Source: Thermodesulfobacteriota bacterium (GTDB lineage: Bacteria; Desulfobacterota_D; UBA1144; Nemesobacterales; JAJCZQ01). From it: a DNA stretch of 64,000 nt. Within the stretch, counting starts at the first letter, position 1; every line of letters begins with the position of its first letter. The stretch lies in contig OZ244044.1 of the NCBI GenBank assembly GCA_965215275.1, positions 864,001 to 928,000 on the forward strand, read 5' to 3'. This document shows positions 12,637 to 63,837 of the stretch, piece by piece. The notes under the pieces were generated by a model. It ran no database searches and had not been told where the DNA came from. It saw only the letters and a list, made by a program, of their open reading frames with translations. The position numbers and the translations under genes are program-made.

Positions 12637-13140
12637 TTAACGATTTAGATTCTGCCTTTCTATCTTTGCTGTATTGTATCTATTACGATAATACTCTTTC
12701 ATTGATACAGCAGTAATTCTTGCATCTGAAACTTCTTTACAGTCAAGTTTTCCTCTTGCATCCTGCCAAGGTCTTTCGTAATGAGTAAGTTCTTCTAAAT
12801 ACCTTGCGTCAAAACCACCATAAACATCCCAAACTTCGTCAAGTATTTCCTTGGTCTTTTCAGAGAAGTTAAAATTGTTTACTACATTTACTTCTATTCG
12901 TCCAAATTTAAACTTATTGTATTTTTTCCACAAAGCATATACAACTGGGCCGTGTATCCACGCTTCTATAGGGTCTTTGAATAACCGTTTATGGTTAAAT
13001 ACCAGATTCCACGCTTGAGCATAATAAACTAACTTTTGCAGTTTTAAGTTAGTCATATACTTGTCATCCTTGTTGGATAGGTATATAAAGTACTCCGCTA
13101 TATCAGATAATTCTTTAGATAATTTTTTAGATTTAGCCAT
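12637..13140 (-). CDS. Panacea (DUF4065) antitoxin
   Basis: Close paralogue of 2433-2936 with the same motifs. Confidence 0.88.
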   Translation of the reverse strand: MAKSKKLSKELSDIAEYFIYLSNKDDKYMTNLKLQKLVYYAQAWNLVFNHKRLFKDPIEAWIHGPVVYALWKKYNKFKFGRIEVNVVNNFNFSEKTKEILDEVWDVYGGFDARYLEELTHYERPWQDARGKLDCKEVSDARITAVSMKEYYRNRYNTAKIERQNLNR

Positions 13141-17108: not shown

Positions 17109-17947
17109 TCTTAAGTGGACTGTCAGGTTCCGGTAAAAGTACGGCAATAAAGTTCCTGGAGGATATTGGCTACTTCTGCATTGATAATCTTCCAACTCCC
17201 TTAACGACCAAGTTCATAGACTTCTGCAAAGACTCTGATGCTGATTTTACAAAAATAGCACTGGGGATCGATATCAGGATTCAGGACAGAGAAACCTTAA
17301 AGGACTTCCCTAAACTCATTCAACTGATCAAACGGGAGATCGCAAACGTCAAGATCATGTTTCTGGAATCAACGACCGAAGTACTGATAAAAAGGTATAA
17401 AGAGACAAGAAGAAAGCATCCACTGTCCAACGATGGAGATATAGTTGAAAACGTGGAAAAAGAAAGAAAACTGCTTGCGAGAATCAAAGAGGCTTCCAAC
17501 TACTTAATAGACACTTCCGAGTATAACGTTTATGAACTGCGAGATCACATTAACTCTATATTCCTCAATATAGATACGGACAGAGTATCACTTAGCATAA
17601 CGTCCTTTGGCTTCAAGCACGGCTATCCCATAGACGCCGATATAGTCATGGATGCACGGTTCTTACCTAACCCTTACTTTATTGATTCCTTAAAGGACCT
17701 GAACGGTAACGATCCAGAGATAAAGGAGTTCGTGCTGTCACGCAGTGAAACCGGAGATTTTATTGAAAAAATATCCGACTTACTTACGTTTTTAATTCCA
17801 AAGTATAAAAACGTGGGAAAATCTTATGTAAATTTAGCGATCGGTTGCACCGGGGGTAAACACAGGTCCGTTGTAATTGCAAATGTGCTTGCAGAAAGCT
17901 TCAAACATATTGAACCTCTGGTAAAACACAGAGATATTAGTAAATAG
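17096..17947 (+). CDS. rapZ: RNase adapter RapZ/YvcJ
   Basis: GLSGSGKS, IDNLP, RFLPNPY, GCTGGKHRSV. Confidence 0.95.
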   Translation: MEILILSGLSGSGKSTAIKFLEDIGYFCIDNLPTPLTTKFIDFCKDSDADFTKIALGIDIRIQDRETLKDFPKLIQLIKREIANVKIMFLESTTEVLIKRYKETRRKHPLSNDGDIVENVEKERKLLARIKEASNYLIDTSEYNVYELRDHINSIFLNIDTDRVSLSITSFGFKHGYPIDADIVMDARFLPNPYFIDSLKDLNGNDPEIKEFVLSRSETGDFIEKISDLLTFLIPKYKNVGKSYVNLAIGCTGGKHRSVVIANVLAESFKHIEPLVKHRDISK

Positions 17948-18432
17948 GGAATTTTCCTTTTTAGCTGACATACTCCACTTTACTCTTTTTTTTCTTCTTT
18001 GTTATCTTCGTCAATTTCTTCGTCATAAGATCCTGGTTCAAAACAGAAAAACCAACTTTATAGTCACACTGCAGTCCAGAACTTGCTCCTCGTCCCTTAA
18101 AGTCATGTTAAAATTGTAGAGTTAGAACTAAAAGTGTATTACAGGAAACTAATATTCCTCTGCTTAAATGGTTATTAGCAGTGTATTTAATAACTACTAA
18201 CTTAAAGGGAGTGCAAATTAGAAGGGGATTTACAGGTAACACAGAAGACAAGCCTGGTTCTTGAATCATGGAATAAGAAAATCATTAAGCAACCAGTCAG
18301 ATACAAAGACGTTAGAACTTATTGAGATTGATTAGACTTGTATGGGCGGTTTAGAAAAGAATAAACACAAATGCGAGGAGTTAATGAGCTGAAAAGGTTG
18401 ACTAATCATTCATGGTTTGATATAAGTTTATT

Positions 18433-19026
18433 ATGGAACGGAAGGGTCTTAAATGTATAATAGATAGTTTGTTAACTGTTTTTATATTTATATACCTTGT
18501 GCTTGGTATATGTGTTTTTGGTATAGCGACTTATTATAATTATTATGAGGAATTAGAAAAAAATTTAGTTGCGTTTGTATTATTAGCAACGTCAATAGTC
18601 GCTGCTGCATTTTTATTTATCAGAATATATATAGATAACCAATTAAGTATAAAGGAGAAGGAAATGTTGAAAGAATATTCAGACAAGGTTGAAGAAGTTA
18701 AAAAGGATATTACTGAAAGATTGACTTTTCAGTTGTCTTCTCAGTTGTCTTCTCAGTCGGAAGATATGAACAAAAAACTTGCTTCTCAATCGGAAGATAT
18801 GAACAAAAAATTTGCTTCTCAATTGGAAGATATGAACAAAAAACTTGTTTCTCAATCGGAAGATATGAACAAAAAATTTGCTTCTCAATTGGAAGATATG
18901 AACAAAAAACTTGTTTCTCAATCGGAAGATATGAACAAAAAATTTGTTTCTCAATCGGAAGATATAAACGAATTGATTAGAGTTTTCAATGATTTTATTA
19001 AGAGTAAAAGAGAAAATAGCAGTTAG
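18433..19026 (+). CDS. 2-TM membrane protein with tandem-repeat coiled coil; paralogue of 47279-47764
   Basis: Shared RIYIDNQLSIKEKEMLKEYSDKVEEVKKD; TTGACT..TATAAG promoter-like sequence upstream. Confidence 0.7.
   Translation: MERKGLKCIIDSLLTVFIFIYLVLGICVFGIATYYNYYEELEKNLVAFVLLATSIVAAAFLFIRIYIDNQLSIKEKEMLKEYSDKVEEVKKDITERLTFQLSSQLSSQSEDMNKKLASQSEDMNKKFASQLEDMNKKLVSQSEDMNKKFASQLEDMNKKLVSQSEDMNKKFVSQSEDINELIRVFNDFIKSKRENSS
18751..18969 (+). repeat. 33-bp coding tandem repeat (about 6.5 copies, SQSEDMNKKFA)
   Basis: Visible in DNA and protein. Confidence 0.9.
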
Positions 19027-19215
19027 TAAACAAGGCTAATAAAAACCCAGTAATTATCCTGTTACCTTTTCTCTGATAATTATCAGAGAAGTCTGTATCT
19101 ACTCATCTATTTTGTATATTTATATAGAAGGTAATGATGTTCAAAACCAAAATGCTCATCTCGAAAGAGCAGAATAAATATAGGTAATTACCCTGTTTAG
19201 CTGACATACCCCAAT

Positions 19216-19425
19216 CTACTCTTCTTTTTCTCCTTTGTTATACTCGTCAATTTCTTCGTCATAAAACCTTGGTTCAAAATCCGTTTTACCCATCAGGATC
19301 TTAACAACATCATCAAATACTATTTCATTCATTTCAGGTACTTTGCCTTGCTCTTTATACCTTTCAAATTTACTTTTCTTTGACATTTTGTTGGGATTGC
19401 CAGAAGGATTGATTTTATCTTTCAT
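19216..19425 (-). CDS. small IS-terminal passenger protein
   Basis: Stop lies just inside the TIR; its 3' end is duplicated at about 17980-18045 (FEPGSYDEEIDEDNKEEKKE*). Confidence 0.55.
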   Translation of the reverse strand: MKDKINPSGNPNKMSKKSKFERYKEQGKVPEMNEIVFDDVVKILMGKTDFEPRFYDEEIDEYNKGEKEE

Positions 19426-19457
19426 TTCTTTAATTATTTATTCAATAAATAAAACCA

Positions 19458-20408
19458 TTATGTTTTCTTGTCATTAACCATATGTACTAAACCCCTTTGA
19501 CCTTTTTCCAAACATATCTGCAGAACTTGTGTTGTGAAGACTGAATATTTGATTGACCACGGACCTTCTTGTGAATATTTTATGTTCGTTAATGGAACTT
19601 CTTGTAACAATTTAACTGTTTCCGGTCTCATATTAACTAATAAAATATTATTATCAGGAAGTAAATCAGCTATTTTAATATCTTCTATTCTTTCATCAAT
19701 AGCTAAAATACAGTCCCTAATGGTGTTACATTTTGTACTGTTATTGCAATATTTATTCAGTAATTTTTTATATGCAGGTGGAATATATATTACAAACGGT
19801 CCAGAGAGGTTTTCCATCTCTTCCTTCATATTTGATATGTCTTTTATAATACCATCTGGAGTCTTAGCAGAATCTGACCAGTTCTTTTCACCTTCAAATT
19901 TAACCTCACTTCTGTGTGGATGATTTATATAGCTGTAAAATTTTTTGCCTGCATATTCACAAGTCTTGTTGGTAAATAACATCTCTTCTAAGGACTCAAG
20001 TACCTTTTTTGCGGCTCTTTCCGTCTTGGTAGTATCTAATACTAATCCCCTATTTCTGTTAGTTTCCAATTCTCTGGTATTCAAAGAATAAAGTTCTTCA
20101 TCAGTAGGCAGTGGGATGGTGTCCATGTCCCCTAAATTATAAACCAATCCAGCATTCTTAAGATCGTTTATCCCACTTTCTTCGGTTTCCACATCCCTGA
20201 TAACCTTGTCTAATTTTATCCATTCATCCTTTCTTAAATTTGCATTACCAACTTGCTCAACATAGTAGTTCCTAGTATCACTTCTATCTCCACTTCCTTT
20301 ATACACGCTAATATACGCTTTACAATCATCCCCAATCCAAGGACGTAGTTTGTGTAAATATTTAGATTGTATTAACTTATTAACATCTGCAGCTGTTATA
20401 TTCATCAT
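19458..20408 (-). CDS. orphan phage major capsid protein (HK97 fold, linocin/encapsulin-related), internally shortened
   Basis: LRPWIG, NANLRKDEWIKLD, GINDL, LDTT..ERAAKKV.E.LE.MLF, YSYINHP, GPFVIYIP, LPDNNILLVNM, GLVH; paralogue of 55085-56104. Confidence 0.75.
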   Translation of the reverse strand: MMNITAADVNKLIQSKYLHKLRPWIGDDCKAYISVYKGSGDRSDTRNYYVEQVGNANLRKDEWIKLDKVIRDVETEESGINDLKNAGLVYNLGDMDTIPLPTDEELYSLNTRELETNRNRGLVLDTTKTERAAKKVLESLEEMLFTNKTCEYAGKKFYSYINHPHRSEVKFEGEKNWSDSAKTPDGIIKDISNMKEEMENLSGPFVIYIPPAYKKLLNKYCNNSTKCNTIRDCILAIDERIEDIKIADLLPDNNILLVNMRPETVKLLQEVPLTNIKYSQEGPWSIKYSVFTTQVLQICLEKGQRGLVHMVNDKKT

Positions 20409-20450
20409 TTTCTTTCTCCTTATCCTTTCTTACATTTTATTTTATTTGTA

Positions 20451-20708
20451 TCAAACATCTAGCTTCAGAAAAGGCATAGTCTTATGACTAGCTTCCTTTG
20501 TATTTACACTTTCGCTAAAATTAAAGTAATACCTATTTTGCTTCAGGCAACCCCTTCTTACGAGATTTTTGTTAATTGATATAAATTGTCTTTCATCTCC
20601 CCACATTAACCTTTCAAAGTGTTTCCTGCATCTCTCTTCCGTATAAAAGTTCTCTGTAAACTCATAAAAACTAATTCTTTGACGGGCTCTTTTTGATAAT
20701 CTACCCAC
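20451..20708 (-). pseudogene. N-terminal stub of IS1595-family transposase fused to unrelated sequence
   Basis: ISFYEFTENFYTEERCRKHFERLMWG parallels ISLVKLFRKFPSDAVAEEWFVKQRWG of 49430; ends before the Zn ribbon. Confidence 0.7.
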
Positions 20709-20807
20709 AATAGTGTAATCTCTTTTTTTATAAGTAACTACAATACATACGCTACTTAGGGGTTATCAACTAAAAAGGATAATTACCAACAAACAAGAGA
20801 AGAAAAA

Positions 20808-25056: not shown

Positions 25057-25218
25057 TTAATCTTTTGATCTACTTAACTTTTTTCTTTTTTCGTTTTCTT
25101 TTAATTTTCTTTGAGTTCTATGTTTTTTAGATAGTTCTATTTGGGGAGCGAACATTATTTTTATTGCTTCATCAAATGTTGCATCTAACGGGGGAATTAT
25201 CTTTTGCTTTCTACCCAT
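25057..25218 (-). CDS. small IS-terminal protein (53 aa, MGRKQKIIPPLDATFDEAIKIMF...)
   Basis: Below the ORF-track cutoff; stop lies 6 bp from repeat 2; P..x.FD..vK motif shared with 19216-19425. Confidence 0.5.
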   Translation of the reverse strand: MGRKQKIIPPLDATFDEAIKIMFAPQIELSKKHRTQRKLKENEKRKKLSRSKD

Positions 25219-25245: not shown

Positions 25246-25992
25246 TTAAACTTTAATTTTTTTATCTAAAAACGGACTTTGGTATACTCCGCCATTTTCT
25301 CTAATACTTGAAATAAACCAATCCATAACATATTTTACCTCTTTAACCACAGGGTCGATACCTTTTTTCTCAATAAAGTTCTCTCCTACATCTACACCAA
25401 GCACCGGACATCTGCCTACAATTTCATTATCTTCGTTAATATAGGTAAATATCTTATATCCTTTATGTTTACCGTGATATTGTATATCTCTTATATCTTC
25501 TAACTCTTCAACATAAAACTCTTTTGTAGCATCCATGCCATACTTATCTTTAAACTCTTTCTTCACATCTGCCATAGATGGATTATCAAACTCATTTACA
25601 ACATCTAAATTAGTGTTATTCATATATGCCTCCCTAAGATATTTTTTTGCTTTTTTACTACGCTCTATATTATTTTCTTTATCTAATCTTAATATCTCGC
25701 TTTTAAAATATTTCCATTCACTGATCATTTTTTTAACCATATCTTCTCCATCTTGTTTAGATATAGTAGTATTTAGATGGGGATAATTTTCATGTTCAGC
25801 CCGCCTATGTCCACCTTTACCTCGATCATCATATATTATAAACCCCACTGCTTTAAGTCTTTTAATATACTCCCTTACTTTCATTATGGCACTTCCCTCA
25901 TATATCTGCTCAACTAATGTTGGACCACGCTCATAAATCTGTTGAATTCTTGTTAGTTTATTATTTTCTTCCATATTCTTTCCTTTTATCAA
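25246..25992 (-). CDS. HicA-like / HicB-like fusion protein
   Basis: MKVREYIKRLKAVGF...RGKGGHR..H..YP (HicA); YKIFTYINEDNEIVGRCPVL...KEVKYVMDWFI...ENG...SP (HicB). Confidence 0.6.
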   Translation of the reverse strand: MIKGKNMEENNKLTRIQQIYERGPTLVEQIYEGSAIMKVREYIKRLKAVGFIIYDDRGKGGHRRAEHENYPHLNTTISKQDGEDMVKKMISEWKYFKSEILRLDKENNIERSKKAKKYLREAYMNNTNLDVVNEFDNPSMADVKKEFKDKYGMDATKEFYVEELEDIRDIQYHGKHKGYKIFTYINEDNEIVGRCPVLGVDVGENFIEKKGIDPVVKEVKYVMDWFISSIRENGGVYQSPFLDKKIKV

Positions 25993-26023
25993 TTTTCTCT
26001 ATATGATTCAATAACCTTTATCC

Positions 26024-26476
26024 TTATATATAATAGAACAAATCAAAATCAATTAATTTACCAATTATTTTATAAACATTTAATTGCTCTGGATTTTTAT
26101 AATCATACTCGTTTATTTCTTTTTTTAATGTTGCTAAATCCGAGTCTATAACCCACTCATCAACCCGTTCATATTTTTGATGTATATAACTCTCTGTTTC
26201 TCTGTAATTCTCTTTTAATACTTTATACACTATTTTATTAGAACCTAACGGGTCAAATGCAGATTGAATTCTTCTTTCTGGATTTGCTGATATACCTACT
26301 TTAAACCAATCTTTTAACTTTACATTATCGGAATTAACAGCAATATATACATATTTCTTATCTACATAGGATTTACCCTGATCCGTTCTTTCTGGTGGGT
26401 CTGTATGAAACCCTATTTGATCAAAGTTAAACATATTTGAAACATATTTGAAACATATTTGAAACCTCTTTTTCAA
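26024..26476 (-). pseudogene. T5orf172/GIY-YIG-like domain, probably the detached C-terminus of a methyltransferase fusion
   Basis: KKYVYI..N...FKVG....PERR...E..IH..Y....EWV matches the tail of 33334-34791; N-terminus formed by an 11-bp x3 repeat. Confidence 0.6.
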
Positions 26477-33333: not shown

Positions 33334-34791
33334 TTAATTTTGCTGGTTGTTATTTTTTGCTTTGTCAGTGGTATTTTTCTGCTTGGGTTTATATGTTTCT
33401 ATATCCTGAATAATGTCATTCAGATCTGCCTTTACCCATTCGTGGGCTGCTTTGTACTTATTGAGAATATGTTTTTCTATCTCTCTGAACCGAAGAGTTA
33501 ACTTGCGGTATTCTATTTTAAAACCTCGGAAAGGTCCTGATGTTTGAAATACATTCAATCTCACTTCCAGGTTCATTGTTACTCCTACCTTGTACAACCC
33601 GGAAAACAGTGGATTTGATATTACATATACGAATTTTTTCTTTGGTGGAGATTTTTTTCTTTTTGGTAGATAAGTTAAATGGTTTATTTTTGCTTTATTC
33701 AATCTCTTTTTAGCTAACTTATATGCATCCTCGGTTATATCAATACCGATCCACCGCCTACCTAATTCCTCTGCGGTTTCACAAGTCGTTGCAAGTCCAC
33801 AAAACGGGTCCAAAACTACATCATCTTTATTTGAAGATGTTTTTATTATTCTTTCTAATAGAGCTAAAGGCTTCTGAGTTGAGTAGCCCAAATATTCGTT
33901 AGATTTAGAGTTCAGACTTGGTATTTCCCAGATATCTCCCAACGGCTTACCATGGTCTTCATCTGAATATTTTTTATAATATGGATGTTCTGTCTTTGTC
34001 CAGTAAATAAGATAAGGATTCTTTTTTATACGTTCATCAAAAGTTTCCTGAGTCCATGTCCAACCACGTTCAGAAATAACTCGCTTGCCTTGTATTACTC
34101 TGGCTTCACTACTATTACTTGGATTTGAATATTTCTCTAAAGGAATTTTTTTATAACGTCTACCGGTTTCTTTTTCTGTATGTGGAAATTCCTTTTCTCT
34201 TTCCTCATCAGAAAGTGGTTCATATTGTAAATTAAAATGAACTTTAGTCTTTCTCTTAGCATAAATGAATATACGGTCTGTAATCTCATCATAGCTAGAA
34301 TTTGAACTATTTGCGTCGTGTTTTTTCCACAAAATTTCATTAATAAACCTCTTTTCTCCAAATATGCGGTCTAACAGCAATTTTAAATAATGGCTTATGG
34401 CTGCATCACAGTGTAAATAGATTGAACCCGTGTTCTTCAACACTCTATGTATTTCTATTAACCTTATTGCCATATAGCATAGATAGCAGTAGATATCGGA
34501 CTTTTGACCTCCTTCCATCTTTTTCACACCTTCCAGGAACTTATATAAATCGTGATGGTCTTGATCTTCTTTAAATTCCTTGACCCACTCATCCTTAAAG
34601 TCTTCTTCCCTGAGTATATCCTTAAATTTTGATTTTCTTACACTGCGTTTAGTTGGAGCAGTAAACATACTTTTTTTATTAAACGGAGGGTCTAAATAAA
34701 CCAGATCTATACATTCATCGTTTATATTCTGTAATACTTCAAGATTATCGTGACAGAAAATGGTTCTGTTCTTTACGTTTAAATTTGCCAT
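33334..34791 (-). CDS. N6/N4 DNA methyltransferase (beta class) fused to a T5orf172/GIY-YIG-like domain
   Basis: YLDPPF before TQKP and LDPFCG; tail FVYVISNP..YKVG.T..L..RL..FQT..P..HEWV. Confidence 0.88.
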   Translation of the reverse strand: MANLNVKNRTIFCHDNLEVLQNINDECIDLVYLDPPFNKKSMFTAPTKRSVRKSKFKDILREEDFKDEWVKEFKEDQDHHDLYKFLEGVKKMEGGQKSDIYCYLCYMAIRLIEIHRVLKNTGSIYLHCDAAISHYLKLLLDRIFGEKRFINEILWKKHDANSSNSSYDEITDRIFIYAKRKTKVHFNLQYEPLSDEEREKEFPHTEKETGRRYKKIPLEKYSNPSNSSEARVIQGKRVISERGWTWTQETFDERIKKNPYLIYWTKTEHPYYKKYSDEDHGKPLGDIWEIPSLNSKSNEYLGYSTQKPLALLERIIKTSSNKDDVVLDPFCGLATTCETAEELGRRWIGIDITEDAYKLAKKRLNKAKINHLTYLPKRKKSPPKKKFVYVISNPLFSGLYKVGVTMNLEVRLNVFQTSGPFRGFKIEYRKLTLRFREIEKHILNKYKAAHEWVKADLNDIIQDIETYKPKQKNTTDKAKNNNQQN

Positions 34792-47278: not shown

Positions 47279-47764
47279 TTAACTCCCATTTTTTTCTTTT
47301 TTGATCAAGTCATCTAAACTTTTAACAATATTTACAATGAGTTCCATCTGTGTATTAAGTTGGTTTATGTCTGTAGTAAGTTGGCTTATGTCCGTATTAA
47401 GTTGGCTTATGTTTGCCGACTGAGTGGCAAACTTTTTGTTTATATCTTCCGACTGAGAAGACAACTGAAAAACCAATTTTTCAGCAAAATCTTTTTTAAC
47501 TTCCTCAACCTTGTCTGAATATTCTTTTAACATTTCCTTCTCCTTGATACTTAATTGGTTGTCTATGTATATCCTAACAAATAAAAACACACCACCAACT
47601 ATTGATGTTGCTAATACCACAAACGCAATTAAATCTTCTTCTAATAGGTCAGAATAATTACAATAAATATATCTACCGAAAACATATATACCAAGTATAA
47701 GATATAAGAATACTAATTTAGCTGTCCAAAGGTCTATTATATTTCTAATATTTTTACGATTCAT
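47279..47764 (-). CDS. 2-TM coiled-coil protein, paralogue of 18433-19026
   Basis: Near-identical core; heptad 21-bp repeat (NISQLNT) in place of the 33-bp expansion. Confidence 0.7.
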   Translation of the reverse strand: MNRKNIRNIIDLWTAKLVFLYLILGIYVFGRYIYCNYSDLLEEDLIAFVVLATSIVGGVFLFVRIYIDNQLSIKEKEMLKEYSDKVEEVKKDFAEKLVFQLSSQSEDINKKFATQSANISQLNTDISQLTTDINQLNTQMELIVNIVKSLDDLIKKEKNGS

Positions 47765-49328: not shown

Positions 49329-50509
49329 GGGGGATATACAATAATGACGAAACTCCAAATAAATAGTTGACAAACTGTAGTTTTGTCACTATTACAGGTA
49401 AGAAAGTTAAATAATTGTGAGGGAGTTATATGTCAAAGAAAGCACCTGGGAAATCATACAGGAAAGGGATATCGTTAGTAAAGTTATTCAGGAAATTCCC
49501 TTCTGATGCTGTTGCAGAGGAATGGTTTGTAAAACAGAGGTGGGGAAAGGAACCCGTTTGTCCGTATTGTGGGACAAAAAACGTTCAAACAGGGACTGGT
49601 CATAAGACCATGCCGTACAGGTGCAGAGAAAAAGGATGTTCAAAATGGTTCAGTGTAAGGAGCAGGACAGTTATGCAGTCTTCTAATATCAAGTATCAGG
49701 CTTGGGCAGTGGCTATATATCTTTTTACCACGTCATTAAAGGGAGTATCAAGTATGAAGCTGCATAGAGATCTGGATATTACGCATAGGTCAGCATGGCA
49801 TTTATCGCATCGTATCAGAGAGGCATGGAACAGAGAAGAACTGCAAGTGTTTACAGGTTCCGTGGAGGCAGATGAGACGTTTACAGGTGGAAAAGAGAGA
49901 AACAAGCATAACAACAAGCGTAGTCATACACGAGGACCTGGAGTGAAGTCCATTATTGTAGGAATGAAGAACAGAGAGACAAACAGGGTAATAGCACAAC
50001 CAGTTTCTGAACGGAGTAAAGAGGAAATACAGGGTTTTATAGTTAAGAACGCAGGTCGGGGAGTAAAAATATATACCGATGATCATAAAAGCTATACCGG
50101 GTTGTTGCCTTATGACCATGAGAGCGTGAATCATAGTGTAAGGGAGTACGTTAAAGAGCAGGCACATGTAAACGGAGTGGAATCGTTCTAGGCAATGTAT
50201 GGAAAAACCTTGCCTTATAAAGAACTGATAAGGTAAGATGAATAATGTTATAGGATAAAAAACAGACAAAAAAATAAAAGAAACTTACAATGACGGACAA
50301 GAAATAATAATAGAGATCTTACTAGGAAGTTATGAACCAACAGAAGAAGAGAAAGAGCATCCGTTTGCTATTGATACAACTCCGCAAAAGTTAGCAAAAG
50401 CTATCCTCCAACCTGTCAACGTTAAAAAGAAGGATGTAAAGAAACACATTGCTGAACGTTCAAAAAACAAGAAATAATCCAGGCTTCGTCACTATTGTAT
50501 ATAATTCCC
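49329..50509 (+). mobile_element. IS1595-family insertion sequence (defective)
   Basis: Inverted ends sharing ATATACAATA(A/G)TGACGAA (49329-49351, 50485-50509); truncates leader module C. Confidence 0.85.
49430..50236 (+). pseudogene. IS1595-family DDE transposase with TAG at the FW position and a C-terminal deletion
   Basis: CPYCG..YRC....C Zn ribbon, GVSSMKLHRDL, VEADET, IYTD, HVNGVESF* then GKTLPYKELIR*. Confidence 0.9.
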
Positions 50510-50555: not shown

Positions 50556-51179
50556 ATGTGTTATGAAGTTCCAGGTGGTTGGTTTCATAATCAAGATTTG
50601 TTAGATGTATATAAAGAAATTGATGTGTCAACATTATATCCATTTTTAGAAGAATTAAGAAAAAAGGTAGATGATAACAACGATTTAAAGCTAAATGAAG
50701 AGGTAAACCGTGAACTTTATAACTTTGTTCATTCAACAATCAATAAACAATTTTCAGTAGAAGTAAGAGACTTGACTTTGTTGTTATATCTTAAATTATT
50801 TAAACTTCCTATAGATGAAGTTCCTGAAACACATTTTCAGTTAAATGATGGGGATAAGTATAATCTATGTGGTCAGATAAAACATATATGGTTTAGAGAT
50901 GATATTTCTATTGATAAAAAATTTGATATAGTTGAGTTTGTAATTCAATCGTTTCGGGATAAAGATCGTAAGGAATATGTTATAAAAGGTTTTAGGGATT
51001 TATTTGAAAAAGAAGATGCATTTTATAAAGATGATAATTCCCGTTTTAATATATCTTTTAATTGGAAATCTATATTAAGAAAAATTTTATTATTAAGATA
51101 TTTACCTATTGATTTATGGGAAAAATTCCGTGAACATTTAAATCCTGATGCATGTATTTATAATAAACAAAGGGAATAA
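50556..51179 (+). CDS. hypothetical protein
   Basis: 207-aa AT-rich ORF, RBS AGGAG. Confidence 0.6.
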   Translation: MCYEVPGGWFHNQDLLDVYKEIDVSTLYPFLEELRKKVDDNNDLKLNEEVNRELYNFVHSTINKQFSVEVRDLTLLLYLKLFKLPIDEVPETHFQLNDGDKYNLCGQIKHIWFRDDISIDKKFDIVEFVIQSFRDKDRKEYVIKGFRDLFEKEDAFYKDDNSRFNISFNWKSILRKILLLRYLPIDLWEKFREHLNPDACIYNKQRE

Positions 51180-54476: not shown

Positions 54477-54759
54477 GATCGTATTTTAACTGGAATTATA
54501 CTCAAGATAAGAATAAAAAAGGGATTACATACTTTGTTATCCAAAGTAACTTAACTGTGAAGTTTTATTAGTTTGTTTTTATTACTTTTTACGAAGTTAT
54601 CCTTGTCTTTCATAAATCCAAATGGGAAATATTATCTGCGAAAGTGTGTCAATATAGCACAAAGCATTGATGACAAACCCTAATAATGCTTTAAGTGAAT
54701 TTGATGTTGAGAGATGTGCTGAGACTGCAGGAAGGCATTTTTTAACTTACGAAATAACT

Positions 54760-55065
54760 GGACCGTTTCTTATTGCTATACAGAAGTCCTGTTATATGTG
54801 TTAGTCTCAAAATCAGTCCCCATTAAGTCAAAAACCTCTTAAGTAATGTTCCTCTCCATACCTAACTTCCTTGAACCTTTAATATTTAAGATAAACAACT
54901 GATAACACCTTTACCGTCTAATGTAGTCAGTATCAATAGTCTCCCTAATGAAACTCGGTCCACTGATAGTCATAATTTGTGCAAGATATTTCGGTACTGG
55001 TTAGTAGTACTGTTCAATCTAAATAACTTTGCACCCATTCCTGCAGTAGGATCATTTAAAGCCAT
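54760..55065 (-). pseudogene. decayed phage major tail (tube) gene
   Basis: MALNDPTAGMGAKLFR / LAQIMTISGPSFIRETIDT / TTLD / FDLMGTDFE in shifting frames; 3' boundary approximate. Confidence 0.55.
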
Positions 55066-55084
55066 TATGCTTTTCTCCTGTTAA

Positions 55085-56104
55085 TTAGCTCATGTGTACT
55101 ATACCAATCGGGTCATTTGCGTTCGAATGTATCTGCGGAACCTGTATTGTAAAGACTATATATTTTGTTAACCACTGAATGTTAGTTAACGGAACCACTT
55201 CTAACAATCTAACAGTATCCTTAGACATATTAACTAATAGAACATTATCAGCTGGGAGTAAATCAGCGATTCTAATGTTGCTTATTTCTTTTCTATCAAT
55301 AATATATTTCCTGATAGTATTTCTTATTTTCTTGTAATATCTATCCAATACAGTAGCATATGCTGGCGGGATATACATTACAAACGGTCCATAGAAATGG
55401 TTGCCTATCATTGCTTCTTTCATACCTAATACATCTTGTATAATACCATGTTCAGTCTTATCAGGAGCTAACCAATTCATTCCACCTTCAAAATTAGCCT
55501 CCGTATTCCTGTTCGGATGATTTATATAGCTGTAAATATCTCGACCTGCATATTTATAAGTATTGTCGGTAAATAATATCTTGTCTAAGGACTTATATAT
55601 CTTTTTTATGGCCATTTCCACCATTATGATGTCTATTGCAACCCCTAAACTTCTGTTGTTTGCCAATGCTCTGATATTAAGGTTGCAACAAGAGTAAGTA
55701 ATAGGTAACGGTCCCCTATCTAGTTCGTCACATGGTGGTACACCATCCATGTGAAGTTGAGTTGCAAGAGCATCCCTAATATCAGACCATTCAGACACTG
55801 TATCCACCATACCCCCTAAATTACGAACCAACTCATAATTTATAAGATCATTTATTCCGCTATGGTAATCCTTCTTTTTAAAGTCTTTTAAACACCTATC
55901 TAATTCTGCCCATTCGGCCTTTCTGAAAACTGCGTTACAAGTTTGCTCATCAGAGTAGTTTTCAGTATCTTTTCGGTCCCCAGTTCCTTTTTTATCATAC
56001 ACTTTAATATACGCTCTACCATCGTTCCCAATCCAGGGACGTAGTTCGTGTATACTTTTAGATTGTATTAACTCATTAACATCCACATCTGTTATGTTCC
56101 CCAT
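55085..56104 (-). CDS. phage major capsid protein (HK97 fold, linocin/encapsulin-related)
   Basis: LRPWIG.DGRAYI, FRKAEWAELD, LPITY, YSYINHPNRN, HFYGPFVMYIP, LPADNVLLVNM, IQVPQIHS, GIVH. Confidence 0.8.
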   Translation of the reverse strand: MGNITDVDVNELIQSKSIHELRPWIGNDGRAYIKVYDKKGTGDRKDTENYSDEQTCNAVFRKAEWAELDRCLKDFKKKDYHSGINDLINYELVRNLGGMVDTVSEWSDIRDALATQLHMDGVPPCDELDRGPLPITYSCCNLNIRALANNRSLGVAIDIIMVEMAIKKIYKSLDKILFTDNTYKYAGRDIYSYINHPNRNTEANFEGGMNWLAPDKTEHGIIQDVLGMKEAMIGNHFYGPFVMYIPPAYATVLDRYYKKIRNTIRKYIIDRKEISNIRIADLLPADNVLLVNMSKDTVRLLEVVPLTNIQWLTKYIVFTIQVPQIHSNANDPIGIVHMS

Positions 56105-56132
56105 TTTCTTTCTTCTTGTCCTCCTTTATGTT

Positions 56133-56433
56133 CTATTTTTCTGTATCAAATTCTCTTGCTATACCTACAATTTCCCCAATGTGTTTCTGTGTTATTTCAT
56201 TGTCGTCTTCAGGCTTATCTAAATATCCACCACCTATAGAAATAAGTGCGTCTCCTTTCTTGATCGTCTGTAAAACTCCTGTAATTGCATACACTTGGTC
56301 TTCAGAACAAGGAAACCATACCTTGACTTTATCGTTAGCTGAATAGGCGTCCTTTTATTTTATTTTGTGTTTTTAAATCCTCTGACTTATCACGCGTCAC
56401 ACAAAACCTGACTTTAATCGTGTTGTAAACCAT
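56133..56433 (-). pseudogene. decayed phage head-decoration-like gene upstream of the capsid
   Basis: RBS AGGAGG; MVYNTIKV, then a frameshift to DAYSANDKVKVWFP...VYAI...GD.L.S.G.G.L...IVGIARE. Confidence 0.5.
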
Positions 56434-56488
56434 TATGATCTACCTCCTTCTTTATTTCCTTGTTTACCCAAATTAAAATCATCACCAT

Positions 56489-56524
56489 AAAAAAAGGGTA
56501 ACCACAAAAATGGCTACCCTTTTA
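56489..56524. terminator. intrinsic terminator after the porin-like gene
   Basis: AAAAAGGGTAACCA-loop-TGGCTACCCTTTT. Confidence 0.75.
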
Positions 56525-62291: not shown

Positions 62292-62876
62292 ATGGAAATA
62301 ATTAGCGAAAGATCAGAGATTAAAGATTGCCAGACAGTCCTCACTGATAGCCTAGAAAAAAACCTTACTGAACATTTACCACATCTATCAGGTTTACCAA
62401 AGAAAATTAAGGGACAATCCCGAGAAGTTGCTGATAGCGCCATTCACAATGGCCGTCTATGGTTTGCTTTTAAAGATAAACACAAACATCGTTACTGGAA
62501 CGCATTCGGTCTGACAACAAGCTATAGTAAAAAAGAAGGTTATATTATAATAGCAGAAATTAATTCTCCAAGAGAGGGTATAAGCGACTCGCCAGTAGGC
62601 CCATTTGGCGTTTTTGCTAAGGATAAGGATAAAAAACGATATATTCTGCACCGAGGGAAGTTTAGAGAATATCATCAAGACATTAGTGAAGACAAATCCT
62701 TACACTGGTGGAGAAACAACTACGACTCCTCTGAATTGTCTGAATTGAGCGATAATCAAGAAGCCATATTAATCAGTTCCCTAGAAGATGGCAGTTCACT
62801 GGTCAAAAATATCACGTCGTTTATAAAAAAAGTCCGCGATTTAAAAAACCATCTTCATAAATTCCCTGACAATTAA
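62292..62876 (+). CDS. hypothetical protein resembling N-terminal domains of restriction-type nucleases
   Basis: RYWNAFG, EIN.P, G.FA.D, HRG motifs; no nuclease domain attached. Confidence 0.5.
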   Translation: MEIISERSEIKDCQTVLTDSLEKNLTEHLPHLSGLPKKIKGQSREVADSAIHNGRLWFAFKDKHKHRYWNAFGLTTSYSKKEGYIIIAEINSPREGISDSPVGPFGVFAKDKDKKRYILHRGKFREYHQDISEDKSLHWWRNNYDSSELSELSDNQEAILISSLEDGSSLVKNITSFIKKVRDLKNHLHKFPDN

Positions 62877-63011
62877 AAACTATTGAATCTGTCCCGTTTT
62901 TAATACAGAAGTTAGAAACAACATCCCTAAAACTACACCTCCTAAAAAGTGTTTCATTATAAAAACCTTCTGAATTGCCCTTAGCTGCAATCCTTAACAT
63001 AAGGAATAAAG

Positions 63012-63275
63012 CTATATCAAATAGTTTAGTAAACTATTATCCTTTTCCCTTTGTTCTTTTTCATAAACATCAGATACACCATCGGACTTGTCAGGTTTGG
63101 CGAGTGCTTTTCTAAAAGTCTGGTTTTTATCTTTGTAAACATCTCTTATAGCATCACTGCTAAAACCCCATATATCCGGCTTGGTATAGAACAGTATTGT
63201 ATCGTACTTTCTTGGAAACCACCGATTAGTATTTGATGGTCCGGTGTATAAAACCATATCAGGAAGGTCTGTCAA
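63012..63275 (-). pseudogene. internal fragment of a DNA methyltransferase
   Basis: YTGPSN..RWFPRK.DTILFYTK...F.SDAIR. Confidence 0.5.
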
Positions 63276-63837
63276 TCAAATACTTAAACTGAAGTTTATC
63301 TCCCCTAGTGGATATTTTCAGCATTTGATCTGGTAAGTTATGTAAATCTGAATTACCCATAATGTTTCTAGTTGGTTTTTTGTTCACGCCAATGTTTACT
63401 ATACTTACAAAACGTTCTTCGTATTCTTCCAAAAACTGCGGCTGTGACCAGAATTCTCTACCAATGGATTTACAATAAGCCATAAAGCACCGTGCTCCCT
63501 TTAACTGTTGTCTGATAATTTGATTATCTTGATTTGAATTGCTTCTCTTCATCTCTATGTAAATAATCCAAGCGACTGTGTCATTACTGGCAACAAGAAC
63601 AAAATCGGCTCGTTTACATTCTCCTTTATTATTCTTAAAGATCTTTGTTGGTGCCTCGAAGTTCTTGTCCACATTAATCGCAATAATGTTATTCGGTACG
63701 TTGTTTATTTTAAGAACATACTTTTTTTCATTCCCGGATTCTTTCAAGGTTACAGTATTCTTACCATAATTACGCTCAATCTTGGCACATGCTTCGTCCT
63801 TGATTAAATCATTTAATAACTTCAAATCATCTGCCAT
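63259..63837 (-). CDS. putative PD-(D/E)XK-like protein partnered with an upstream ATPase
   Basis: KRADFVLV...IYIEMK...QLKGA. Confidence 0.55.
   Translation of the reverse strand: MADDLKLLNDLIKDEACAKIERNYGKNTVTLKESGNEKKYVLKINNVPNNIIAINVDKNFEAPTKIFKNNKGECKRADFVLVASNDTVAWIIYIEMKRSNSNQDNQIIRQQLKGARCFMAYCKSIGREFWSQPQFLEEYEERFVSIVNIGVNKKPTRNIMGNSDLHNLPDQMLKISTRGDKLQFKYLIDRPS

Follow-up and report, generated by a model that had tools for sequence, protein, structure and literature searches.

In the single-contig genome (1.99 Mb) of a Thermodesulfobacteriota bacterium, a major capsid gene originating from a dead prophage lies within a crippled IS1595 element, and its product, P0002, a protein that has lost a loop and conserved its core, may act as a poison of head assembly against related phages. 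We put forward this reading tentatively, holding it somewhat short of an even chance on the evidence of the sequence. The original prediction had considered a decoy capsid for antiphage defence or a domesticated nanocompartment, and the decoy idea would be the best reading so far. The window, as used here, is the whole stretch of 64,000 nucleotides that was analysed (C1:864001-928000); positions refer to it unless preceded by the name of the contig, C1.

The capsid gene and the element that carries it

The capsid ORF, on the minus strand at 19458..20408, encodes 316 aa without interruption and was assigned by homology, modelling and structure alignment to the HK97-fold major capsid proteins, minus 36 residues of the E-loop region. 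P0002 scores 33.2 bits against PF19774 (DUF6260; cut-off 26.6), matches phrog_771/264 and obtains an Atlas score of 0.98. The DUF6260/phrog_771 relatives of P0002 and of its only paralogue in the genome, P0001, are proteins of 350-380 aa with ~40-45% identity to them. The AlphaFold model of P0002 has a pLDDT of 89 and that of P0001 of 82.5, both being built on family alignments and hence biased towards the family fold. In VIA-align, P0002 aligned with the encapsulin 9i8e (Z 21.8, rmsd 2.1, 243 residues aligned) and with the Sf11 capsid (Z 18.0, rmsd 3.3, 236 aligned), and in Foldseek/VIA the models of both copies match HK97-fold shells, the Family 1 encapsulins being the best of them. P0002 shares with the DUF6260 capsids a clear homology and, as far as the models predict it, the fold of the HK97 A- and P-domains.

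What P0002 does not have is the full E-loop of this family. The E-loop region is 45-46 residues long in 107 of 107 relatives but shortened to 39 in P0001 and to 10 in P0002, which makes the deletion in P0002 one of 29 codons with respect to the paralogue and of 36 residues with respect to the family, P0001 itself being 6-7 residues short. A wider alignment (148 full-length rows of 153) gives 12 residues for P0002, 41 for P0001 and 47-50 for the other 146 rows. The deleted segment aligns to the encapsulin hairpin that follows the first helix, which we take, from knowledge of the HK97 fold, to be the E-loop.

The gene also stands apart from any head module. In the DUF6260 loci with at least 500 nt of upstream sequence (108 of the 111 fetched), a decoration or protease gene lies 5' of the capsid gene in 108 of 108, a decoration gene in 107 of them, and the PHROGs labels of an example module read portal, head morphogenesis, protease and decoration. 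The copy at 19458 has neither portal, protease nor decoration gene beside it, and the one at 55085 is preceded, in the place usual for the family, by nothing but a decoration gene that is broken. No portal, protease or terminase gene was found genome-wide with the queries used, the result for the portal coming from tblastn with family portals, as a phrog_146 search matched no control genome either. An uninterrupted capsid-like ORF of 316 aa, an in-frame loss of about 30 residues that was probably the E-loop, and the lack of portal, terminase and protease genes nearby had all been predicted from the DNA letters, and all three hold.

The capsid gene is part of an insert with a GC content of 31.7% that separates rapZ from the PTS IIA gene, which are neighbours in the five relatives checked (G001-G005). 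Read along the minus strand, the element consists of the left terminal inverted repeat (TIR) at 20787, an 85-codon ORF, P0002, a 69-aa ORF and the right repeat at 19183. The left TIR (20760..20787, minus strand) is of IS1595 type, and the pairing with the inner right TIR (19183..19210, plus strand), already proposed, stands in alignment with 19/22 and 22/28 bases matching. The left TIR also matches 19/22 bases at 17947, where an outer right TIR is found together with a small-ORF remnant (17947..18043, plus strand; 86% identity to 19180-19279 over 100 bp). A genome-wide scan allowing up to 5 mismatches returned 18 sites, and just three of them, 17947, 19183 and 20787, lie within 3 mismatches.

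Elements of the IS1595 family are expected to leave a target duplication of 8 bp. Compared with the empty site in G001, exactly 8 extra bases are present; the 8-mers flanking 17947 and 20787 (17939..17946 on the plus strand, at the rapZ stop, and 20788-20795) match at 5/8 positions, as a decayed duplication, versus 4/8 for those that go with 19183. What inserted was thus most probably the whole of 17947-20787, an IS1595 derivative that is nested and has decayed and whose outer ends fit the target duplication better than the inner end at 19183, up to which the element had originally been drawn.

The transposase that precedes the capsid gene is a stub (20595..20708, minus strand) of about 38 codons, cut off at W-G-D ahead of the zinc ribbon. 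It was recognised by tblastn to four transposase copies and by a profile made from 10 transposases of the same genome, positions 5-41 of which it matches (E 1.9e-5); only these ~38 codons of the 85-aa ORF match. Transposase searches located another broken IS1595 remnant on the opposite strand (18121..18368, plus strand). The small terminal ORF of 69 aa (19216..19425, minus strand) has three related remnants elsewhere in the genome, and an intact transposase at C1:436579 is followed by a small ORF in the equivalent position. The element is single-copy in the genome, without the further copies that would indicate current mobility.

Between the two right ends lie a 135-bp repeat (19049..19182; 86% to C1:277181-277313) and an ORF of 197 aa (18433..19026, plus strand) that encodes a membrane and coiled-coil protein and contains 33-bp repeats. 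The latter belongs to a family of nine ORFs, small, AT-rich and of membrane/coiled-coil type, of which some carry internal repeats of 33 bp; the other members lie at 47279-47764 and at seven further genome sites. No family match above cut-off was obtained for these nine ORFs, their weak ZorA and tape-measure matches being attributed to the coiled coil.

The DNA immediately upstream of the capsid gene has two components. The nearer one, a leader of phage origin, is treated below with its source. The farther one (20507..20592, minus strand) duplicates 88 bp of sequence from upstream of the host gene lon; this copy is 94% identical to C1:1327622-1327709 and co-oriented with the capsid gene, sits inside the transposase stub and ends 99 bp before the capsid start, the source ending 85 bp before the lon start. 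It holds a promoter-like motif, TTGCCT-16-TACTTT, and since the lon upstream regions of G001 and G002 conserve TTGCCT..TA, the copying went from host to element. With a divergence of about 6%, the piece is far more recent than the duplication of the capsid gene (dS 0.69). A role as a promoter is counted against by several observations: the motif fits the sigma-70 consensus at only 7/12 positions and escaped the promoter scan, the copied piece does not include the TGTATAAT site that is conserved at lon, and this is one of 33 short two-copy repeats in the genome. Sigma-70 scans showed no excess over shuffles (7 vs 8.3; 3 vs 9.0).

The idea of a truncated transposase followed directly by a capsid gene, captured behind the transposase promoter, consequently survives in part. 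The IS1595 match and the capture of a gene-sized piece stand, but the transposase is reduced to ~38 codons and interrupted by the lon copy, and it is this copy, within the stub, that lies just upstream of the captured piece, so that the capsid gene does not simply follow the transposase promoter.

An assembly artefact was excluded by a 1281-bp contig of another study, identical to the relic described below with 0 differences, and by identical pieces of the element in four other studies. Those pieces, free of differences, occur at low depth in studies carrying different organism labels. In contigs from 8 of 16 sequencing runs, whatever matched was either identical or could be put down to cross-mapping by the paralogue and by related small ORFs, and yielded no polymorphism.

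Prophage relic and selection on the two copies

P0001, the intact capsid paralogue of 339 aa and source copy (55085..56104, minus strand; 47% identity to P0002), belongs to a prophage relic, a 2-kb insert flanked by TIGR04551 and ygfZ, which G001 and G002 lack between the corresponding host genes. Upstream of P0001 lies a broken head decoration gene (56151..56433, minus strand; profile E 2.4e-16, positions 64-137), with its start in another frame and an in-frame stop, and downstream a broken major tail (tube) gene (54788..55065, minus strand; profile E 1e-13), with two in-frame stops and its start likewise in another frame. The relic (54490-56490) begins directly after a host terminator, with no inverted repeats seen, and retains just the genes of the three bulk self-assembling virion proteins, decoration, capsid and tail tube; connector, protease and portal are gone.

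Phage DNA accompanies the capsid gene of the element on both sides. The leader (20409..20462, minus strand) corresponds to the end of the decoration gene region plus a ribosome-binding site (20412-20421) and aligns to 56105-56166 with a score of 52, reached by 0 of 5000 AT-rich null windows, which confirms the resemblance over ~55 bp noticed from the letters. Downstream, 19450..19468 (minus strand) preserves what is left of the start of the tail tube gene, its ribosome-binding site and first codons, with 18/20 bases common to the relic, a score reached by 0.3% of 5000 null windows. In every phage locus where both could be seen (32 of 32), the capsid and tail genes lie 1.8-7.9 kb apart. As a junction of capsid stop and tube start is common to the two copies, the source is the relic at 55085 or its direct ancestor and, the 54 upstream bases being shared too, the relic had already collapsed when the gene-sized piece entered the IS.

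A tree places both copies in one clade (SH-aLRT 99), on branches of 1.29 and 1.62 as compared with a median of 0.36; this was a quick tree, made with 60 of 109 rows and carrying long-branch and composition warnings. Independent capture from two phages is rejected by the shared tube junction together with the joint clade, the latter with the long-branch caveat. The original prediction that both copies derive from a related phage was right as to the phage major capsid origin, but the IS copy was taken from the relic in the same chromosome, or from its direct ancestor.

Between P0001 and P0002, dN/dS is 0.55 (30 bootstraps, 0.39-0.81; dN 0.38, dS 0.69; 298 codon pairs), an average over the whole history of both copies, and departs from the neutral value of 1 (2dL 9.2), as had been anticipated. 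Phage capsid pairs of the family have a dN/dS of at most 0.089 in 28 of 29 pairs with dS of at least 0.05, several of them saturated in dS, and the exception has a dS of 0.01; the ratio between the two copies is at least six-fold higher. Among 118 family-conserved columns, 41 and 48 are changed in P0001 and P0002, respectively, in comparison with a median of 3 and a maximum of 17 in 107 relatives, and these departures argue that the virion duty is gone. Nearly all the divergence between the two copies accordingly arose outside virion constraint.

The constraint that remains follows the fold. By site class, dN/dS is 0.34 in the core, 0.28 at Gly/Pro, 0.54 at conserved polar and 0.76 at variable positions (2dL 17.0, 3 df). 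Residues are hydrophobic at 72 of 77 core positions, where 50 would be expected under neutrality and 59 under a uniform ratio of 0.55 (1000 simulations each), and about half of the conserved polar residues have been lost. Purifying selection has thus acted on the hydrophobic core and on Gly/Pro, and weakly on conserved polar residues. Both capsid ORFs are free of stops and every gap between them keeps the frame, and both flanking genes of the relic are broken; in a neutral simulation, the chance of no stop was at most 0.002 per copy at 0.17 substitutions/site. Pure neutral decay is rejected by this simulation and by the core-biased constraint, and a folded protein was thus selected for after the end of virion duty.

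A value of 0.55 is nevertheless not special in this genome, where other duplicates evolve alike. In 79 other paralogue pairs with dS of 0.2-1.2 (out of 135 fitted), which were chosen as open ORFs and hence share the same bias, the median dN/dS is 0.39, and 16 of the 79 reach at least 0.55. The amino-acid composition of the copies has also shifted towards K/N/I/C and away from G/A, as in AT-biased relaxation.

Candidate functions of the loop-less capsid

The history proposed for the element, whose steps are visible in the sequence or closely inferred from it, is the following. A phage of the DUF6260 family integrated between TIGR04551 and ygfZ and shrank to decoration, capsid and tube; a gene-sized piece, comprising leader, capsid ORF and tube start, was then copied into an element of IS1595 type within the rpoN operon. 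The phage genes on either side decayed, both capsid ORFs remaining open, and the IS copy lost its 36 E-loop residues. More recently, the copy of the lon upstream region arrived before the capsid start. P0002 would be expressed at a steady level and, upon infection by a phage of the same family, would enter its capsomers through the retained A- and P-domains. Without the E-loop tying capsomers together, heads would be malformed and fewer infectious progeny would be produced.

This scheme draws on what has been described for HK97-fold proteins elsewhere. The E-loop makes inter-capsomer contacts in D3/HK97 heads (PMC12749128), and the A-domains pack within capsomers (PMC8569155). The clearest precedent is Ccm of the SaPIs, a capsid homologue of ~20% identity that enters phage assembly and cuts the titre (PMC5052747, PMC8569155); Ccm alone lowers the titre of the helper phage 10^3-10^4-fold, and the mutations that let the phage escape fall in the capsid (PMC5052747). 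The reading of P0002 as an assembly poison is favoured by this precedent, by the dN/dS of 0.55 in place of the far lower values of phage pairs, by the core constraint and the open frames, and by a complete, ordinary head module of the DUF6260 family in a genome of the same order (G094). That module lies on a 50-kb contig (G094:C225) whose first 20 kb contain no host gene, so that its assignment to the host rests on binning.

Several observations disfavour the same reading. Other duplicates have a similar dN/dS, the composition has drifted in an AT-type manner, and the element is known from one species only; an identity of ~40-45% to phage capsids, added to the loss of about half the conserved polar residues, means that co-assembly may fail; and the promoter motif in the lon piece is weak. 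PADLOC models gave no match for the capsid element. A predicted complex of P0002 with the phage capsid of G094 (score 0.00, mark 0.32) has no bearing either way.

Among 120 genomes of the class, the family profile was matched only by the host (G000) and G094. No orphan capsid copy was found in the 119 other genomes of the class or among 1.84 billion representative sequences, and no close relatives of either copy in viral contigs (searched with P0001), metagenome contigs (searched with the two-copy alignment), protein clusters or 40 relatives. A literature search, which left subscription journals largely outside its reach, returned no report of an IS-borne or E-loop-less capsid, nor of DUF6260 in such a role.

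The alternative that survives best, even though we regard it as rather unlikely, is slow decay: both ORFs would be prophage leftovers under a weak, function-blind selection, for instance against misfolded or truncated products in a transcribed operon, and would have been shuffled by the traffic of IS1595 elements and short duplications. A genome with 34 transposase matches and 33 short two-copy repeats, duplicates of similar dN/dS genome-wide, the long branches and skewed composition of the copies, and their confinement to a single species would all be in keeping with it. Harder to reconcile are two ORFs of more than 300 codons that have kept clear of stops and frameshifts at a dS of 0.69 next to shorter neighbours that are broken, a constraint that tracks the fold, and a captured piece that is almost exactly one gene plus its ribosome-binding site. 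Moreover, the direction of the element opposes that of the rpoN operon, so read-through from the operon would be antisense.

An improbable explanation is that of a nascent encapsulin, in which the host would keep the capsid as a compartment, with P0001 as the shell and P0002 as a minor subunit, pore former or free capsomer. For both models the closest structural matches are Family 1 encapsulins, no protein of the genome exceeds the Pfam cut-off for encapsulins, and domestication of prophage capsids has been proposed as the origin of encapsulins, a defective Sulfolobus prophage providing a transitional case (PMC8346489). The likeness to encapsulins is, however, a property of the whole phage family and not of these copies. 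P0002 falls far below the curated family scores (18.2 in NCBIfam encap_f1, cut-off 100; 19.8 in PF04454, cut-off 24.3), no cargo gene lies beside either copy, and 0 of 1572 ORFs end in the targeting motif, a simple C-terminal pattern that may miss divergent peptides. The E-loop regions of both copies are damaged (39 and 10 residues versus 45-46) and, this loop being a conserved feature of the shell-forming encapsulin families 1-3 (PMC11664910), its loss together with the missing cargo motif makes a nanocompartment less likely for P0002.

More improbable still would be a decoy outside the shells, that is, a folded monomer or capsomer titrating a partner, be it a phage scaffold, protease or decoration protein, or a host immune protein that senses capsids. 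Truncated HK97-fold proteins that form dimers instead of shells exist (Family 4; PMC11664910), and a conserved core with a turned-over polar surface could be what such a protein looks like; no partner gene was identified near either copy, though, and the loss of surface conservation fits decay equally well. Packaging of the element or of host DNA with helper-phage machinery, as capsid homologues do in SaPIbov5 (PMC8569155), is very improbable in view of the lack of integrase, replication and terminase genes in element and relic, the failure to find portal, protease and terminase genes in the genome, and a single-copy element with no cognate transposase ends elsewhere.

The assembly poison, if that is what P0002 is, would work like Ccm. 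In SaPIbov5, Ccm (a homologue of the phi12 capsid) is likewise encoded outside the phage, is unable to build shells alone and enters phage assembly, with a block to the phage (PMC5052747, PMC8569155), an outcome that by analogy is proposed for P0002. As in that system, P0002 is a homologue of the capsid of a phage infecting the host group, as attested by the relic and by the module in G094. In contrast, Ccm has an E-loop and serves a replicating satellite in making small capsids, whereas P0002 has its E-loop deleted and is carried by a non-autonomous IS remnant with nothing to package, not by a phage satellite.

The carrier is similar to the tIS of the IS1595 family (10.1101/2021.05.26.445724) in its paired IS1595-type ends, its 8-bp target footprint (with the outer pair of ends) and a passenger between transposase and right end. 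Contrary to these, it has a 38-codon stub in place of an intact DDE transposase, its ends are nested and decayed, and its passenger is a virion structural gene from the same chromosome. With Family 1 encapsulins and the transitional Sulfolobus system (PMC8346489, PMC11664910), the likeness is limited to the closest solved folds and to prophage-capsid domestication as a proposed origin; P0002 has no E-loop and no cargo operon, and has the extra N-terminal region of its phage family. The defence systems Tab and Tai (PMC10884400, PMC11364771) would provide an analogy in outcome, as they protect at the population level by spoiling virion assembly; they act on tails and are not described as copies of structural proteins. 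The P0002 element works, if at all, like Ccm, yet it is no member of the Ccm system, of the encapsulins or of the working tIS.

A further step would be to see in P0002 a restriction factor that the cell has made its own from a captured capsid, duplicated, deprived of its inter-capsomer loop so as to be a chain terminator of head assembly, placed on IS ends and provided with a housekeeping promoter, which on present sequence evidence is doubtful. If true, this would give bacteria an equivalent of the host restriction factors derived from the capsids of viruses, and would catch capsid domestication under way in the phage lineage whose structure comes closest to Family 1 encapsulins. Early steps toward sabotage capsids or encapsulins are seldom seen, and here a single chromosome shows how the module was lost, the gene duplicated, virion constraint lost while the fold persisted, the loop deleted and host upstream DNA acquired. 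The pair of P0001 and P0002 offers a direct test of whether an HK97 protein without E-loop folds, forms capsomers and poisons assembly in trans. Should P0002 be functionless, it would show for how long a useless gene can seem selected where most duplicates have a dN/dS near 0.4.

Other features of the window and its genome

Most duplicated genes of this genome have a dN/dS of 0.3-0.5 (79 pairs), and its expanded families include one of 64 members, 18 TPR proteins, 28 IS1595 transposases and 17 TnpB-like proteins. One IS1595 transposase copy in the window (49430-50191) ends at 253 aa, its sister copies reaching 313 aa; a PADLOC match to PDC-S32 (50556-51179, E 1e-7) adjoins an IS1595 transposase. 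A second PADLOC match, to PDC-M47B (63259-63837, E 4e-62), falls within 62292-63837. Two Panacea/SocA-like antitoxin genes (2418-2936 and 12637-13140), 81% identical, belong to a four-copy family. At 25246-26476, a HicA-like domain is fused to a member of a six-copy AT-rich family, next to a T5orf172 gene; the low-GC island in which they lie has a small ORF of IS1595 type as well (25057-25218). A T5orf172 domain is also found at the C-terminus of a 485-aa DNA methyltransferase encoded at 33334-34791.
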